Positions 1 to 23,073 of a stretch of 24,954 nucleotides of DNA are shown piece by piece (positions within the stretch are counted from its first letter, which is position 1; each line of letters begins with the position of its first letter). The notes below the pieces were generated by a model. It ran no database searches. It was given only the letters and a program-made list of their open reading frames with translations, and was not told where the DNA came from. The position numbers were made by a program, and so were the translations under genes. The DNA is from a virus (taxonomy: Duplodnaviria; Heunggongvirae; Uroviricota; Caudoviricetes). Location: IMG/VR virus record IMGVR_UViG_2706794665_000003; one strand, 5' to 3'.

Positions 1-90
1 GAACAGGAGGGACAGCTGATAGAAACAGAAGCCACTGGAGCACCTCAAAAACACCATCATACACTAAATCAGTAAGTTGGCAGCATCACC
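1..90 (-). mobile_element. IS1 insertion sequence, terminal fragment; element continues beyond the window start
   Basis: Reverse complement of 1..90 matches the first 90 nt of IS1 as I recall it (GGTGATGCTGCCAACTTACTGATTTAGTGTATGATGG...), with the terminal inverted repeat at 68..90. Minus strand 35..1 reads GTG GCT TCT GTT TCT ATC AGC TGT CCC TCC TGT = (M)ASVSISCPSC, the InsA N-terminus. Confidence 0.85.
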
Positions 91-839
91 AGCCTTCTTG
101 AGGCTACCACCTGTTTTCAGGTGTCATTCAGACGTGATTTGCCCCAGATTGGGAAAGCACGCTTTTTTCTCAGCTATCGTCCTCTTATTTTGCCGTTACA
201 TTTCTTTTTGCATTCTAATGATTAATTTACAATAATAATATCGGTAATTATTGAGTAATAATAAATTAATTATTGCAAATGTAATTTAATTCCATCTTCG
301 CGTTATATTCCAATCTTTAATCTCCGCATGGAACAAGTTGCATGCGTGACTATATTAAGACGACTTATAACCACCAAAACATTTGCTTTGCAAGCAAAAA
401 CAGTGACCATTGACTCTAAGAAAATTCCGATCTATTGTTAGGGTCATCAAAGTTACTTAACAGTATTCCGAAATGAAAATACAAAGCAAGCTAATTGTCT
501 TATTAAACATTATTATTGCATTTATATTATTTGAGCTTTTAGCTCAAAAATTTGGTTTGAGTACATTATTTTAAAGCAAGATAAACAATATCGGGCACTC
601 TAGTTTTTATAATTAACAATTAAACGTCCATAAAATGTTATTTACTTTTCTTCGCTATTGTCATATCTTAATATAGTGGCTTACGCCACTCTACTTTCAT
701 CACATTTTGTACGTTTATGTACTCGCCATGAAGCTCTTTCATGGCGATTTTTTATTCTTAATCCAAGAACATACTCCCTACCTATAGCAAAATCACTTTT
801 TTAACAAAAGAATAACGTATTTAGGTAATCATTACGAAT
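91..839. other. AT-rich region with no ORF of 60 aa or more, between the IS1 end and the tfa stop
   Basis: Visibly low GC compared with the flanking phage genes; the six-frame track lists no ORF here; contains promoter-like hexamers, small ORFs and a plus-strand terminator-like hairpin. Confidence 0.6.
724..756 (+). terminator. Candidate intrinsic terminator for plus-strand transcription
   Basis: Perfect 9-bp inverted repeat CGCCATGAA (724..732) / TTCATGGCG (738..746) with 5-nt loop, followed by ATTTTTTATT (747..756). Confidence 0.5.
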
Positions 840-1421
840 TTACCCTATAGGTGCTACTGGCCATTCAATATCCGGTGCAGTTGATGTATCAACACGGTTC
901 AGCAACACCCGATACTTTTTCCAAGCTTCCAGCAACAAGGTTTCTTTCTCCGTTGCGATCTCCAGATCCACAGCATCCTGAAGCGGCGCTATATGCTCAC
1001 TGGCTACCTGCATCAGGCTGTTTTTTGTTTCTTCCGCCTCCCGGATCCGGAACAGTTTTTCTGCTTCCGTATCCTTCACCCAGGCTGTGCCGTTCCACTT
1101 CTGAAACTCCCCTTCCGGGGATAACCAGGTGACATTTTCCGGTAATGAGCCGAGTTCAGAAATAAATAACGCGTCGCCGGAAGCCACGTCATAAACCGTT
1201 TTACCCCGATGATCTTCAACGAGATGCCACGATGACTCATCACTGTTGAAAACAGCCACGAAACCAGCCGGAATATCTGGCGGTGCAATATCGGTACTGT
1301 TTGCAGGCAGACCTGTATGAGGCGGAATATATGCGTCACCTTCACCAATAAATTCATTAGTTCCGGCCAGCAGGTTATAAATTTTTATGGTCCGTGCTTG
1401 TTCACTCATTCTGAATGCCAT
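840..1421 (-). CDS. tfa: Tail fiber assembly protein Tfa
   Basis: 193-aa ORF; MAFRMSEQ...[34 protein letters not shown]... matches lambda Tfa as I recall it over nearly the full length. Start ATG overlaps the stf stop by 1 nt (TAATG). Confidence 0.93.
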
Positions 1422-4400
1422 TATGCGAGCCTCACAATATAGTTAAATGCGATGTTTTTGACGGTGTTTTCCGCGTTACCAGCAGCGTTAACGGTGATGG
1501 TGTGTCCATGTGAACCAATCGCAACAGAGTGCGTATGAGCACCAATACCGACAGTATGCGCGTGTGCACCCGCAGATGCTGCTGTGCCGGACAGTGAGTG
1601 TGTATGGTTTCCTTCTGAAGATGATTTACCTACCCATTGGGAGGTGCCACTGGTTAATGAGCCACTGATACCAACCTGATTAGTCCCGCTAACTTGAGTA
1701 CTCCCTGCCGGAAACATTCCAGTAGGTTGACTCCCGCTATTCGTTCTGGGCCCAGTCTGACTATGTTGGTGGGCCCCAGCTGAACTTGTAGAGCCGCTCA
1801 GACTGTGCGTATGCGCCCCGGTGTTATTCGTGGATTTAGTGCCGTAATCAAACGACGATGTGGTTTTCGTCCCCAAATCCGTACTGGATGCGCTGGCGCT
1901 GTGGGTGTGCGATTTAATGCCATCCTGTTCCTGAGACAATACGGCACGACCACTGGCGGGCTTGCCCTTAATCGTCCAGCCACGCATATCAGGGATCACG
2001 CCTGACGGATAAGCGGCTGCAAGTTTCGGGTAAGCAGATTTGTCAAAAGTCTGCCCCTGCATCAGGGCATAACCAGACGGAACGGTATCTGATGGCCACG
2101 GGATTGGTGCACCGACTGGATAAAACTCTGCAGGAGGATGAGCCGAGGTGTAAAGCTGCGCCCACGGCGACCAGTTTGCGTCGGTCGTATCCCGTCGTGA
2201 ACGAATAAATGCCGGAGCATGAGCACCGCTTGTACCACTCCAGCCGATGAGTAACTCACCTTCGCCAACGGCTGTCATCCCTTTCAGGTGAATGATATTT
2301 CCATACGCTGTTGGATATCCGTTGTTATACACCTCGTATAACTCAAGACCTGCTGCCCCCTGCGTATTGTCTGTCAGCGCGGCTACCCGACCTTTTGAAG
2401 CCAGATTAACTGATGATACTGCTGTTCCACCTGACGGTAGCGCCCCGATCTCTGATGCCGTTGGCTTATTTCTGGAGTTATAGTCCCTTCGCCAGCCAGG
2501 TGAATAATCTGTTCCGTGATTAATATAGGTAAACTGGGCGTTGGTTGTTCCGCCACCGCTGGATGTGGTCGGAGTGGTAATGCGGATCGTCATCGCTGAC
2601 TTTATCCCCATTACTTCAATGACAGCTCCGGCGAGATGAATATTACCGCAGCCAGTATCAGTAATGATTTTATTATTGCCATAAGACCAGGAACCCTTGC
2701 ACATCCAGTATGGATGGTTAAATGCTCCCTGAGAATCCAGCCACTCGATAAACTGTGCAGTCGTCCAGTTTCCTGTTGTTGTGCTTACTGACCCACCGAA
2801 GGCACGGCAGGCACCAATATTTTTCGTAAAGGTGTCTTTGCCAGGGATATCCGCACCGTTCTGATCTTTCTGCAGACGTTTCTCAGCATTGTCATTGGCT
2901 GCTTTTACTGCCTTTGGCGTTGCCGCCAGCGTTTCAGACGTGCTGTTGGTCGCGCTGCTTAGCTGGATTATCCCTTTCTGTGCTGTCGTTGCATCCTGTG
3001 CGGTGTATTTCCCGTTAGCCAGGTCATACGCGGCCTTAACGGCTTTTGGTGTTGCCGCCAGTGACTCGGAAGTGCTGTTAGTCGCACTACTGAGCTGTAC
3101 TATCCCCTTTTTCGTCGTGCTCGCATCCTCAAGCGCCACGGCGGATGCAATATCCTCTGCCCGTTTTGCCGCTGTCTCAGCGCGCGTTGCTGCAGATTCC
3201 GCCGTACTTTTGCTCTGAGCTGCTGCCGTCGCACTACCAGCAGCCTCTGTCGCCTTCGTGGATGCCGTCGTGGCGCTGCCCTTCGCTGCTGACGCCTGTC
3301 TGGTCGCCTCATCTTTTGAAGCAGACGCCGATGATGCCGATGACGCCGCCGAACTGGCGGACGATGCGGCAGCCGTTTTTGAGGATTCTGCACGGGTTTC
3401 CGACGCTTTCGCGTTCGTTTCGGATGTCTTCGCTGCGGAAGCTGACCTCGCTGCTGCCGTGGCCTGCTCAGTGGCTTCGCCAGCCTTCGTTGTGGCTGTT
3501 GAAGCGGATGATGCGGCGCTTTCTGCCGATTTTCCGGCGGCGGTGGCACTGGCTGAGGCCTGCCCGGCACTTGTTGACGCGGCGCTGGCAGACGACGCAG
3601 CCGCTGTTTTTGAGCCTGCCGCAGCTGAGGCACTCTGTCCCGCTGCCGTTTCAGAAGACCTGGCGTTCGTCTCGGACGTTTTGGCCGCCTTCGCAGAATT
3701 TGCAGCCGCCGTCGCCGAGGAAGCTGCGCTACTGGCGCTTGATGATGCGTTCGTTTCTGATGATTTTGCCGCCTCTTTTGAAGCCGACGCATCCCGGGCT
3801 GAGGTGGCAGCTTCTGACGCTTTCGTGGTCGCGGTGGATGCAGAAGTGGCTGCTGATTGTTGTGACGCTGCCGCATTCGTTTCTAACGTTTTCGCCGCAC
3901 CGGCACTGGTAGCCGCCGCGCTTTTTGAGGACTCTGCAGCGGCAGCACTTTTTGAGGCTTCAGTGGCCTTTGTTGATGCCGTTCCTGCGCTGGAAGACGC
4001 TGACTGAGCCGACGAAGCGGCCTGTCCGGCTGACGTGCTGGCTGCACGTGCTGAATCTGCAGCATCAGTCGCATGGGTTGCCGCCTCACGGGCTGATGTG
4101 CTGGCATCGCTGGCTGATTTCTTCGCGGCTGCCGTGTTCTGTGCCACCGCGGACGCGTTACGCGCCACCTCTTCCACCATCAGCTCAAAACGGCGCAGTG
4201 CCTCCGGACGGGCATCATCCTCCGTCATGGCACCGAGAAAATCATTNNNNNNNNNNNNNNNNNNNNNNNNNNNNNNNNNNNNNNNNNNNNNNNNNNNNNN
4301 NNNNNNNNNNNNNNNNNNNNNNNNNNNNNNNNNNNNNNNNNNNNNNNNNNNNNNNNNNNNNNNNNNNNNNNNNNNNNNNNNNNNNNNNNNNNNNNNNNNN

Positions 4401-4506
4401 NNNNNNNNNNNNNNNNNNNNNNNNNNNNNNNNNNNNNNNNNNNNNNNNNNNNNNNNNNNNNNNNNNNNNNNNNNNNNNNNNNNNNNNNNNNNNNNNTTAC
4501 TGCCAT
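1421..4506 (-). CDS. stf: Side tail fiber protein Stf, enlarged; N-terminal region interrupted by gap 4247..4496
   Basis: Start ATG GCA GTA A (minus 4506..4497) directly after the post-lom terminator, as in lambda (MAV...). After the gap: [15 protein letters not shown]..., a long Ala/Ser/Thr-rich shaft, [14 protein letters not shown] motif twice, and a His-x-His-rich C-terminus ...[31 protein letters not shown]. The track ORF start at 4549 reads through the terminator hairpin and is not the real start. Total length is not a multiple of 3, so the gap does not preserve length. Confidence 0.88.
4247..4496. other. N-run (assembly gap or mask) inside the stf 5' region
   Basis: 250 consecutive N. 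Confidence 1.
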
Positions 4507-4544: not shown

Positions 4545-4570
4545 GTCATAACACTGTGTTACCTGGCTAA

Positions 4571-5067
4571 TCAGAATTTATAACCGACACCCACGATGAA
4601 ACCGTCAGTGCGCCAGAGACGTGTTGCTGTGGCGACCGTCATCACTTCCGGTCAGCACATCGTGCGTTTTCCCCTTATNNNNNNNNNNNNNNNNNNNNNN
4701 NNNNNNNNNNNNNNNNNNNNNNNNNNNNNNNNNNNNNNNNNNNNNNNNNNNNNNNNNNNNNNNNNNNNNNNNNNNNNNNNNNNNNNNNNNNNNNNNNNNN
4801 NNNNNNNNNNNNNNNNNNNNNNNNNNNNNNNNNNNNNNNNNNNNNNNNNNNNNNNNNNNNNNNNNNNNNNNNNNNNNNNNNNNNNNNNNNNNNNNNNNNN
4901 NNNNNNNNNNNNNNNNNNNNGTTCAGATCATCACTGCCGGGAACGTTGGTCCGGGCATGAAGATACCCCGCGCTCAGCGTGGACTGATGTTCAGACGCCC
5001 ATGCAGGCGCACCGGATACGGCCAGGCAAATGGCTGCGGACAAAATGGCTGCACAAACTTTACGCAT
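4571..5067 (-). CDS. lom: Lom outer-membrane protein (Ail/OmpX-like family), interrupted by gap 4679..4920
   Basis: N-terminus MRKVCAAILSAAICLAVSGAPAWA/SEHQSTLSAGYLHA has a signal peptide with an AxA cleavage site and matches lambda Lom. C-terminus after the gap ends ...GVGYKF-stop, an outer-membrane beta-barrel style terminal Phe. Shine-Dalgarno GAGAGG lies upstream of the ATG. Confidence 0.85.
4679..4920. other. N-run inside lom
   Basis: 242 consecutive N; the lom frame differs on the two sides. Confidence 1.
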
Positions 5068-5137: not shown

Positions 5138-8100
5138 TCAACGAATACTGATGCCGGAAGCCGCTTTTTTGGTCACAATCACCGTACAGTCGGTGATATT
5201 GCCTGCCCCCTGATTGCCTTTCTGGAAAATCTTAAACTCCAGAGTGACGCTACCACCACCACTAGGCATATCAATAACTGCACTGTAACTACCGGGAATG
5301 GCACCTTTAGTTTCTCTGGATGCGATTAATACGCCGTTTTTGCGAACTTCAAAACCATAACCCGTGTATCGCGTGCCTCCTGGGTTATTTCCGCTCCCCG
5401 GATCGTCATACGCTATACCGTTAAAAATAATGGGCGGAATAATAATCTGGCGGTCAAAGTTATGATCATCGCTTATGGTGACTGTAACCGTCCCGTTTGG
5501 TGTTTCCGTGTTACCCCACGTACCAGCCTGTTTCGGAAATGATTTGGATACAGCTTTAACGAAGTCACCTCTGACCTGAGTCGCCTCCAGCATGCCCTTA
5601 ATCGTACAGTTTTCATTTACCGTGACATTGTTGAGCGTCCCGGCGTTCGCATTCACACTGCCACTGATATCCGCATTTTTAGCGGTCAGCTTTCCGTCCG
5701 GAGTCAGGGAAAATGCCGATGGATTTCCACCGCTGGTAATGGTGGGGGCCGTCAGGCGTTTCAGGAACACGTCGTTCATGAATATCTGATCGCCCTGACC
5801 AACAAACATCGGTTTTGTGTTGCCATTCGCAGGATTAACCATCGCAATCCTGTCCGCCGCCAGCAGCACCTGACTCTGCATGCCGTCAGGGGTGTTCTCA
5901 ATACCGGCACCAATACCCGCGATATAAAGGCGTCCGTCCTGCATCTGCTGCAGCTTCACAGCCCACATGCTGTTCAGGTTATTATTTGNNNNNNNNNNNN
6001 NNNNNNNNNNNNNNNNNNNNNNNNNNNNNNNNNNNNNNNNNNNNNNNNNNNNNNNNNNNNNNNNNNNNNNNNNNNNNNNNNNNNNNNNNNNNNNNNNNNN
6101 NNNNNNNNNNNNNNNNNNNNNNNNNNNNNNNNNNNNNNNNNNNNNNNNNNNNNNNNNNNNNNNNNNNNNNNNNNNNNNNNNNNNNNNNNNNNNNNNNNNN
6201 NNNNNNNNNNNNNNNNNNNNNNNNNNNNNNNNNCGGTGCGGCAATCCGGAACGATACCGACGCCGGATCGCCCTGCTGCCCCCACGCATTTACTGCCCGG
6301 ACTGTCAGCCTGTAGTTCCCCAGCGCCAGTTGTGTGAAGCGGTAAGTGGTTTCCGTCGTCCGGGCCGTGCTGACCAGCCGCTCACTGCCGTCATCCGCTG
6401 TTACGGTCAGACGGAGCAGGAAGCTCACGCCCTTCACCACCTTCGGCGTGTCCCAGCGCGCCAGCACCTGATATTCCCCGCTGTCTGCGGTGACTTCGGC
6501 AGTCAGGTGCTGCACCGCTGGCGGCGTGACACCATTCACCGTGCCGCTCTGGTCGCCGTCAAAGTGCGCCCCGTTATCCACGATGGCTTCTTTTTCCGGC
6601 ACATGCTGCACGGCGGTGATGGCATACGTGCCGTCGTCGTTCTCACGGATACTCACGCAGCGGAACAATCGCTGGTGCAGCGTCGGCAGCTTCAGCCCCC
6701 ACACGCTGTATTCAGCAACACCGTCAGGAACACGGCTCACTTTTACCTTCACGCCGTCGGTGACGGACTGGACCTCCACGCTGACCGGATTCCCCTGCCC
6801 GTCAACCAGGCTTATCAGCGTGGTGCCGGAGGATGGCAGCGTGATTTCACGGTCGAGCGTCAGCGTCCGGGTCTGGCTGTTCACCGCCAGCACGCGCCCG
6901 CCGGTGCGGATACCGGCATAGTCATCATCGCAGATTTCAATGACATCGCCCGGTACATGACGAAGCCCTTCAGCACCCACGCTGAAATCCACGGTCTGCG
7001 TCTCCAGCAGTTCCGTTTTAATCAGCCACAGCCCGGCGCGGTGTGCCTGCCCCCGGCTGGTACAGCCAAAGGCATCCATCTTCGTGACGTTACGACCGTA
7101 ACGGACAATGGCCTGCGTATCCTCCACAAGCTCTGTCGCCGTCTCCCAGCCGTTATCCGGGTCAATCCAGTTCACCTCAACGGCATTATGGCGGTCTTTC
7201 AGGGCGCTGAAACTGTAGCGGAACGGCGCGCCATCATCCGGCATCACCACATTACTGCGGTTATAGGCCCACACCTTATCCGACTGTCGGTCCTGCACGA
7301 ACGTCAGCGTCTGCCCGTTCCATACCGGCATACAGCGCATCGCCGAGCAGAAATCACTGAGCACATCCCACGCCTTGCGCTGTGTGGTCAGCCAGGCATT
7401 ACAGGTGATGCGCGGCTCCGTGCTGCCAAAGCCGTCCGGCACCGACTGGTCACAGTACTGGCCGATGACATACAGCGCCCATTTATCCACATCTGCCGCA
7501 CCAAGACGTTTCCCCATGCCATAGCGCGGATGGGTCAGCATATCCCACAGACACCAGGCCATGTTGTTGCTGTATGCCGGTTTTAACGTTCCGTCCCAGA
7601 TACCGCTGTATTGCCGCGTCTGCGGATTATAGTTCGACGGCACCTGCAGAATGCGCCCGCGAAGATGATAATTACGGCTCACCTGCTGGCTGCCGAACTG
7701 CTCCGAATCCACCTGTACGCCGACCAGTGCCGTGTTCGGGTAGCACTGTTTCACATCGATGATTTCGGTGTATGACGACCAGAGCGTTTTGTTCTGCAGC
7801 TGGTCTGTGGTGCTGTCCGGCGTCATTCTGCGCATCCGGATATTAAACGGGCGCGGCGGCAGGTTATCCACCACCACCGAGGCCAGATACTGCGAGGTGG
7901 TTTTGCCCTTAATGGTGATGTCTTTTTCCGTCACCCAGCCACCGTTACGCTGTATCTGAACCAGCAGGCGAACTTCAGACGGATTCCTGTCTCCCTTTGA
8001 GGTGGTTTCCACCAGTGCCTGTACACCGAAGGTAAAACGCAGTCGGTCAATGTTTGCCGACGTGATGGTCCGGGTGATCGGCGTGTCATATTTCACTTCC

Positions 8101-9107: not shown

Positions 9108-9757
9108 TTGTCGGTATNNNNNNNNNNNNNNNNNNNNNNNNNNNNNNNNNNNNNNNNNNNNNNNNNNNNNNNNNNNNNNNNNNNNNNNNNNNNNNNNNNN
9201 NNNNNNNNNNNNNNNNNNNNNNNNNNNNNNNNNNNNNNNNNNNNNNNNNNNNNNNNNNNNNNNNNNNNNNNNNNNNNNNNNNNNNNNNNNNNNNNNNNNN
9301 NNNNNNNNNNNNNNNNNNNNNNNNNNNNNNNNNNNNNNNNNNNNNNNNNNNNNNNNNNNNNNNNNNNATGGTAAGCATCCCGGAACAGCGTGTAACAGTC
9401 CGTCACCCCGTGCTCAAAGCGCCGCCCGGTAAGATGTGGCACACAGCGGAACTTGTGAATCGCCCCCCGGCAGACCAGCCACCACGGCAAATCACTCTGC
9501 ACCTGCAGCCGCCGGTCGGCCTCACTCAGCCAGGGCAGACCACCGGGGTGGCTGTGGACCAGTGCCACAATCTCACCCTGCATCTCTGCCTGCAGCCAGT
9601 CTTCCGGCGACATACGGAAATACGCCTCCGGCTCACCGGAGATATTCACGCAGGGGAAATATCTTTCCCCCTCCGGCGTTCTTACCACGAAGCCGCACGA
9701 CTCCGCTGGAGCACATCGCCGGGCGTGCGCCAGAATCGCTGATTCTGTCTCTGTCAT
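9005..9757 (-). CDS. K: Tail assembly protein K (MPN/JAB plus NlpC/P60-like), central part in gap 9118..9367
   Basis: N-terminus MTETESAILAHARRCAPAESCGFVV...HSHPGG (JAMM-like HSH motif) ...DCYTLF (NlpC/P60-type Cys); C-terminus after the gap ...AFTGICNDLAAASTFV. 3' end overlaps the I start by 103 nt. True length is uncertain because of the gap. Confidence 0.85.
   Translation of the reverse strand: MTETESAILAHARRCAPAESCGFVVRTPEGERYFPCVNISGEPEAYFRMSPEDWLQAEMQGEIVALVHSHPGGLPWLSEADRRLQVQSDLPWWLVCRGAIHKFRCVPHLTGRRFEHGVTDCYTLFRDAYHXXXXXXXXXXXXXXXXXXXXXXXXXXXXXXXXXXXXXXXXXXXXXXXXXXXXXXXXXXXXXXXXXXXXXXXXXXXXXXXXXXXXTDKWQRRTHSLWRHRAWHASAFTGICNDLAAASTFV
9118..9367. other. N-run inside K
   Basis: 250 consecutive N. 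Confidence 1.

Positions 9758-19472: not shown

Positions 19473-23073
<3,601 letters not shown>

Follow-up and report, generated by a model that had tools for sequence, protein, structure and literature searches.

What is carried by the AT-rich stretch that lies between an IS1 end and the tail fibre assembly gene tfa of a lambdoid prophage, when it contains no open reading frame (ORF) of 60 aa or more? The stretch occupies positions 91-839 of the window, by which we mean the whole 24,954 nt of caudoviral DNA analysed (IMG/VR record IMGVR_UViG_2706794665_000003). Five runs of N (1149 bases: 4247-4496, 4679-4920, 5989-6233, 9118-9367 and 21718-21879) occur in the window; two of them, including 4247-4496 within the side tail fibre ORF, lie around the 5' end of that ORF, and the translated proteins contain runs of X at these places. 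GC content of 91-839 is 0.315, compared with 0.485 in tfa and 0.557 in stf. An earlier note on this DNA had described the region as AT-rich and free of ORFs of at least 60 aa, and both statements are correct (31.5% GC; the longest ORFs are 52 aa, at 77-235 with the start within IS1, and then 48 aa), though this is also what chance predicts: the missing long ORF is unremarkable because 73.5% of 2000 shuffles of 91-839 are without one too. The 60-aa threshold concealed a 33-codon ORF at 473-574, located within the transcript which the note had proposed. We conclude that 91-839 probably forms the right end of a lambdoid prophage, mosaic and non-essential, with one intact accessory gene cassette embedded in it, and, with a probability of roughly 0.7, that this cassette is a prophage moron which would express a predicted inner-membrane peptide resembling YncL.

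BLASTN of 91-839, a check proposed in the earlier note, found all 749 bp, 98-99.6% identical, in 280 complete E. coli genomes. The same 749 bp are also present in three cultured phages, mEp332, PhiR70_1 and ev099 (four phage records). No homology was found that would make the region the decayed 3' part of a known gene, the outcome which the note itself had named as fatal to its proposals. Six-frame translations of 91-839 gave nothing credible against Pfam and PHROGs, and a decayed larger gene was rejected. The region and its surroundings can be divided as follows.

1-90, minus strand: terminal 90 bp of IS1, insA-proximal end (100% match to IS1A copies; transposase directed away from the region)
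91-175, no strand: phage-side arm relic of a serU-type attachment site, 85 bp (the same 85 bp lie beside a serU 3' fragment elsewhere)
176-261, no strand: strongly AT-rich linker with 24% GC (confined to the att-lambda class)
262-386, no strand: flank common to Qin-like (ydfJ) and sit-linked prophages (no conserved ORF)
387-819, plus strand: present/absent cassette of 433 bp, moron-like, 29.8% GC (absent from locus L011 between homologous flanks)
840-1421, minus strand: tfa, tail fibre assembly gene (constant neighbour of the cassette)

The left border of the region was made by IS1. As the earlier note had noticed, an IS1 terminus reaches position 90; 1-90 is the IS1 end, and it is annotated as IS1A transposase in sibling genomes with an identical junction (matching window 1-500). 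In locus L006 the element is complete (5323-6090, the full 768 bp with an IS1A transposase CDS). Locus L004 is an uninterrupted relative, a prophage at att-lambda beside ybhB and bioA, in which no gene is annotated in the 1505 bp after tfa; beyond them a gene for an AraC-family regulator follows on the same strand. In comparison with L004, L006 has IS1 inserted and 550 bp alongside it deleted, with no target duplication, and the full 768-bp IS1 stands in place of L004 4451-5000 in 273 complete genomes with the window's junction. The deleted 550 bp are neighbouring spacer, including the serU att relic, upstream of the AraC-family (YdeO/GadX-like) gene, before which 206 bp are left after the insertion and deletion. 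Independent IS1 insertions were also found at positions equivalent to window 241/242 (L044), 456/457 (L144) and 719/720 (L036), besides the one at 90/91, and since these are at least four independent insertion positions among strains, the 750-bp AT-rich stretch is an IS1 hot spot. The regulator gene itself lies outside the window, about 206 bp past IS1 (L006 4373-5116, minus strand, 247 aa); it matches phrog_1450 and the models of YdeO and GadX best, the latter two with scores short of their cut-offs. IS1 and the deletion took most of its 756-bp upstream region, and its expression may be altered by this loss.

The 85 bp next to IS1 are, by their sequence, the outer part of the att arm of a serU-integrating phage, a relic that is probably non-functional here. 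In uninterrupted relatives their start is 110 bp away from the serU core. In EC958 and AST20 they adjoin a serU 3' fragment at the prophage junction on the zinT side, and they recur alone near zinT at prophage junctions in strains such as ST131. The 55-aa ORF annotated over this relic in ev099 was rejected, being not conserved outside the module. Between tfa and the AraC-family gene of L004, 340 bp (4551-4890), deleted from the window lineage just left of 91, are 97% identical to the K-12 yodB-serU spacer together with the 3' 62 nt of tRNA-Ser serU. To us this looks like a relic att junction of a serU-integrating prophage inside the att-lambda prophage, seemingly captured by aberrant excision or by recombination between prophages. 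In L035 about 1 kb stands in place of the linker at 176-261, and ydfJ-class prophages have different sequence there. From there on 262-839 is about 96% shared with Qin-like prophages at ydfJ. The flank 262-386, whose ORF 328-441 is interrupted in other lineages, is kept in loci without the cassette, there separated from the tfa stop by about 20 bp, and the flanking sequence shared with other prophages also includes 820-839. We read part 91-386 as recombination debris, made of a serU-type att arm relic and a shared flank. It was this debris that IS1 cut into, and the cassette at 387-819 is untouched. The earlier suggestion of a remnant of foreign cargo broken by IS1 has to be abandoned: nothing in the cassette is broken, and it encodes the same peptide as the majority allele.

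Two further observations concern longer versions of the region. To the left of the 262 module, ydfJ- and sit-linked prophages carry stacked remnants of the tfa 3' end (L008 3159-3253 and about 3892-3995; L141 2745-2844 and 3449-3607), all in one orientation and 74-77% identical to window 839-956, which suggests that tail-fibre modules were replaced repeatedly and that old tfa ends stayed in place. A hypothetical ORF of 65 aa (MNGESFNFDDNDIEF...; L008 3563-3760, plus strand, and L035 9565-9762, minus strand), absent from the window, sits between the prophage end and the 262 module; it gave no Pfam or PHROG match and in NCBIfam only a non-significant match to GlgS (E 0.027, 14 of 105 bits).

The cassette is delimited by its absence elsewhere. 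In L011 (strain OkiPb01681) window position 386 is joined straight to 820, and about 49 genomes fall within the identity band of this class; the polymorphism arose either by insertion or by deletion. Base composition of the cassette differs from that of its neighbours (29.8% GC versus 48.5% in tfa and 55.7% in stf), and it is about 99% identical between the att-lambda and ydfJ classes, compared with about 95% for tfa and about 82% for 262-361. Of 5426 complete E. coli genomes, 828 (about 15%) contain its core, 400-760, in 941 places altogether with no more than four per genome, and never on plasmids as searched by blastn; in 816 strains the cassette is intact. Three prophage contexts were found, att-lambda, ydfJ and sit-linked (beside sitABCD), and in all of them a tfa, or the remnant of one, runs convergently to the cassette. 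The expectation of accessory cargo at this position of a lambdoid prophage thus proved justified. The ends of the cassette carry neither terminal inverted repeats nor a target duplication, and the idea that it is a mobile element was rejected; so was the idea of a modular 3' element: where the 3' part stands alone (L143), a deletion of 1.19 kb has produced it, and the 5' part found by itself (L144) results from another IS1 insertion. Some copies are damaged by loss of the start codon (ATG to ATA in L114), by a frameshift (variant P0018), or by IS1 insertions and deletions inside the cassette, which shows that the cassette is dispensable.

Could it then be just a non-functional spacer, conserved through recent spread together with tfa, whose ORF and resemblance to YncL are fortuitous? 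The frequency with which IS1 or deletions struck the cassette would fit such debris, as would its lack of annotation: no RefSeq row inspected has an annotated feature under the match to 400-760, and in three phage records examined either nothing is annotated there or a different, non-conserved ORF is called. Moreover, a hydrophobic ORF of 33 codons easily arises in DNA of 22-30% GC, and most copies are 95-100% identical, so that conservation within the lineage says little. This explanation has to be judged against the properties of the following elements.

410-438, plus strand: candidate promoter, TTGACT, 17-nt spacer and TATTGT preceded by TC (scan; conservation against the allele L141)
473-574, plus strand: 33-codon ORF (stop included) encoding MKIQSKLIVLLNIIIAFILFELLAQKFGLSTLF, predicted YncL-like single-pass membrane peptide (ORF list, NCBIfam, BLASTP)
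675-722, plus strand: 3'UTR hairpin AGTGGC-TTAC-GCCACT (675-690) and A/U-rich linker (96% identical to L141, the most conserved stretch of the cassette)
723-757, plus strand: intrinsic terminator, stem 723-732/738-747 and T-run (scan, fold, alignment)

The only NCBIfam family matched by the peptide is NF000537, "stress response membrane protein YncL" (E 1.3e-5, 25 bits, positions 1-28 of 30). Three alleles of the peptide match it with E values of 1.3e-5, 3.7e-5 and 7.5e-5 and scores of 25.0, 23.5 and 22.5 bits, while K-12 YncL scores 68.6 bits and the curated cut-off, which an equivalog has to reach or exceed, is 35 bits. The phage peptide, at 22-25 bits, is for this reason not a YncL equivalog, and the scores fit a distant paralogue. 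In the BLASTP alignment with K-12 YncL (MNVSSRTVVLINFFAAVGLFTLISMRFGWFI) 11 of 28 residues are identical (39%) and 18 of 28 positive (64%), ungapped from Met1 to Gly28. The Smith-Waterman score of 60 is not reached by any of 20,000 composition-preserving shuffles (20.2 +/- 4.1), and none of 10 composition-matched shuffled peptides matched YncL in NCBIfam, so the colinear similarity to YncL goes beyond composition. Both peptides are about 30 aa long with one central predicted transmembrane segment, flanked in the phage peptide by the basic residues K2, K6 and K26; the maximum of Kyte-Doolittle hydropathy over 19 residues is 2.54 at residues 7-25, and 2.15 at the same position in YncL. Asn12, invariant within the predicted helix, may point to helix-helix association. 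Chromosomal yncL, a core gene of E. coli, lies between patD and ortT, and the phage gene adjoins tfa in prophages. Because the peptide stays below the equivalog cut-off and its gene lies outside that locus, we file the gene, as far as its sequence can tell, as a divergent prophage-borne paralogue of YncL packaged as a moron.

Evidence on coding constraint comes mainly from divergent alleles. At all loci taken together the ORF has five synonymous and three non-synonymous variable sites, a weak excess within the main lineage. The sit-linked allele (L129, L142) differs by four synonymous changes and one non-synonymous, A24D. The allele of GF50 (L141) is 81% identical in DNA over the ORF and keeps start, stop and length (MKIQSKLIILLNIIFALILFKLLAQKFGLYTLF); here pS is 0.51 and pN 0.088, giving a pN/pS of 0.17, versus 0.38 and 1.98 in the other two frames, and indels appear in the alignment directly outside the ORF. 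In contrast to this frame, the small ORFs 328-441, 658-804 and 668-742 (minus strand) are broken, or have only non-synonymous changes, in other lineages. Identity to L141 along the cassette is distributed as follows.

upstream of the -35 (23 bp): 0.48
promoter: 0.90
5'UTR: 0.71
ORF: 0.81
575-631 (with indels): 0.56
632-674: 0.81
675-722: 0.96
terminator: 0.91
past the terminator: 0.67

Conservation is thus uneven, with peaks over promoter, ORF and 3' hairpin-terminator. The ORF is under purifying selection, as judged from these substitution patterns. A fortuitous ORF in a passively spread spacer is quite unlikely in view of this patterning, of the similarity to YncL far beyond that of composition-matched shuffles, and of a 19%-diverged allele that keeps its frame at a pN/pS of 0.17 while the adjacent non-coding DNA has acquired indels.

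The transcription unit suggested in the earlier note, plus strand from 410-438 to 723-756, coincides with the conserved core of the 433-bp cassette. The TTGACT (410-415), 17-nt spacer and TATTGT (433-438) are present as the note had stated. It matches 9 of 12 consensus positions, and promoter-like sites as such are at chance level (6 found by the scan versus 4.8 +/- 2.5 in shuffles), yet this one forms an island of conservation. Its -35 is unchanged in all five aligned lineages; L023, a single IMG/VR copy, has TTGATT with one substitution. L141 has TATCGT in place of TATTGT at the -10 and retains the preceding TC, which we take to resemble the C(-13) signature of sigma-S promoters. Transcription would start near 445. 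The region around the start of the ORF is unstructured (-2.3 kcal/mol), and no Shine-Dalgarno sequence lies ahead of the ATG of 473-574. At the other end the hairpin and T-run reported near 724-756 are real and strong: the stem at 723-747 has 10 perfect pairs (11 by the scan), then TTTTTTATTC, with a folding energy of -18.2 kcal/mol (z -5.8). This terminator is directional (plus strand only), convergent with tfa, and its stem is unbroken in all divergent alleles. The minus-strand ORF 668-742, which overlaps the 3'UTR hairpin, has only non-synonymous changes.

The earlier note had also considered a regulatory or small-RNA locus, and this reading deserves attention since the 3' 82 nt are 91-96% conserved in relation to L141, more than the ORF (81%) and much more than 575-631 (56%). 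Either the transcript of about 310 nt or a fragment of its 3'UTR (about 675-756) would act by base-pairing, and the ORF would be incidental, or secondary in a dual-function RNA. Hairpin, A/U-rich linker and U-tailed terminator resemble the 3' ends of Hfq-type sRNAs. In Salmonella, yncL is sigma-S dependent, and its transcript was first catalogued as an sRNA (PMC5437024). On the other hand, the search for structured RNAs, also proposed in the note, found no Rfam family in the region (1-1500) even at E up to 1; over this search and a gathering-threshold search of the whole window the only match was IS009, inside tfa. The K-12 yncL locus matches no Rfam family either. Both strands of the region fold equally well (z -3.5 and -4.0), and substitutions in stems are too sparse for covariation (two are G-U compatible and one is disruptive). 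A trans-acting sRNA would be recognised by an Rfam match, or by covarying structure without a conserved ORF, and what we see here is a conserved ORF. The locus is hence not simply non-coding; a selectively maintained, YncL-homologous 33-codon ORF lies in the putative transcript. Purifying selection on this ORF and its homology to a known protein make an RNA-only function unlikely, although 675-756 is so highly conserved that it may have a further role at the RNA level. As to IS009 (RF02111), it scores 218 bits at window 880-1078 (minus strand), wholly within the tfa coding sequence, and this "RNA family" coincides here with a conserved piece of a protein-coding gene.

A small, hydrophobic, prophage-borne peptide on a long structured mRNA also brings to mind the toxin of a type I toxin-antitoxin system, a membrane-damaging peptide that would be kept in check by an overlapping antisense RNA. 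Overproduction of YncL depolarises the membrane and lowers viability (PMC12542507). Such a system would include an overlapping or adjacent gene for an antisense RNA, under a conserved promoter and with a conserved terminator of its own, and we found no conserved antisense unit: the sole promoter-like site on the minus strand (664-635) has its -35 changed in L141, and the scan gave no minus-strand terminator. Long-range pairing between the 5' and 3' parts, seen in the minimum free energy fold, was rejected, as manual inspection of the alignment with L141 showed no compensatory changes. PADLOC gave no match and NCBIfam no family but YncL. We therefore regard a type I toxin as very unlikely.

We return to the moron with a YncL-like peptide as the preferred reading, under which the cassette might work in the following way. 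In the lysogen the plus-strand promoter at 410-438 would give a transcript of about 310 nt, starting near 445 and stopping at the intrinsic terminator 723-757 (about 756), convergent with the tail-fibre operon, from which late read-through out of tfa would run antisense to it. An unstructured leader without a Shine-Dalgarno sequence would precede ORF 473-574, and the product would be a single-pass peptide inserting into the inner membrane. YncL is induced by stress, minimal medium, heat and stationary phase, and its production condenses the nucleoid, triggers the phage-shock response and depolarises the membrane to a sublethal degree (PMC12542507). It is also cleaved by RseP in vivo (PMC10470546). 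By analogy, the lysogen would produce the phage peptide, perhaps when stressed or in stationary phase, and the peptide could modulate membrane potential and stress physiology.

A more speculative extension, which we think rather improbable, is a dual-function module in which the YncL-like peptide partly depolarises the inner membrane of the lysogen and the 3' 82 nt (675-756) serve as a 3'UTR-derived RNA regulating host targets. The RNA half of it rests on 675-756 being better conserved than the ORF. If true, depolarisation could bring the lysogen into a tolerant state of low metabolism, or superinfecting phage could be excluded; the latter would fit the fixed position of the cassette beside receptor-binding tail-fibre genes.

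The peptide family appears to be narrow, with only two allelic lineages, all in E. coli-type sequence. Searching 1.84 billion representative proteins with phmmer returned only the peptide itself and the frameshift variant P0018, and among about 15 billion predicted proteins it occurs only twice, unnamed. The tfa-linked loci of GTDB representative genomes are without the cassette, and degenerate back-translated patterns in IMG/VR and metagenomes found the same cassette only, plus five chance matches. A tblastn search of phages gave no match, and since even the identical copies were missed, the low-complexity filter probably masks the peptide. We found no paper in the literature with the peptide sequence or linking YncL to a prophage copy. 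Annotation routinely overlooks small membrane proteins, and AT-rich spacers at prophage ends which are taken as free of ORFs should be screened below 60 aa. If our reading is correct, YncL, a chromosomal family of stress peptides, has a mobile, prophage-borne paralogue. Since K-12 can be lysogenised with mEp332, PhiR70_1 and ev099, this offers a tractable system for the function of YncL-type peptides and for lysogenic conversion or exclusion.

How does the cassette compare with known systems? With YohP, Hok, Ldr and TisB the peptide shares a length of about 30 aa and a hydrophobic, here predicted, single-pass character; it differs from them in sequence, the only match in NCBIfam being to YncL, and no antitoxin RNA was found for it. 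YohP, like YncL, causes sublethal depolarisation when produced (PMC12542507).

Phage morons are reportedly defined, by Hendrix and colleagues, with lom and bor of lambda as examples. Like them, the cassette is an extra gene with a putative promoter and terminator of its own, is poorer in GC than the genes around it, and may be present or missing at its place, here at the end of the tail-fibre operon, between sequences that otherwise adjoin. Unlike lom or bor it is very small (433 bp, 33 codons), and its expression from the prophage is putative.

The closest relative is K-12 YncL (b4598). The two differ in that identity is 39%, that one is prophage cargo and the other sits in the chromosomal patD-yncL-ortT locus of K-12, and that the phage gene is accessory (15% of genomes) while yncL occupies a fixed chromosomal position. 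There is no Shine-Dalgarno sequence before the phage ATG where K-12 yncL has AAGGTGG, the phage gene has a long (180 nt) conserved 3'UTR, and the C-terminal tail is LSTLF in the phage peptide and WFI in YncL. What they have in common is size (33 versus 31 aa), a colinear and ungapped alignment from Met1 and a single hydrophobic core at residues 7-25. Residues S5, K/R6, L10, N12, A16, L19-F20, L22 and K/R26-F27-G28 are shared, and both genes form a short monocistronic unit, putative in the phage, with a C before the -10 hexamer.
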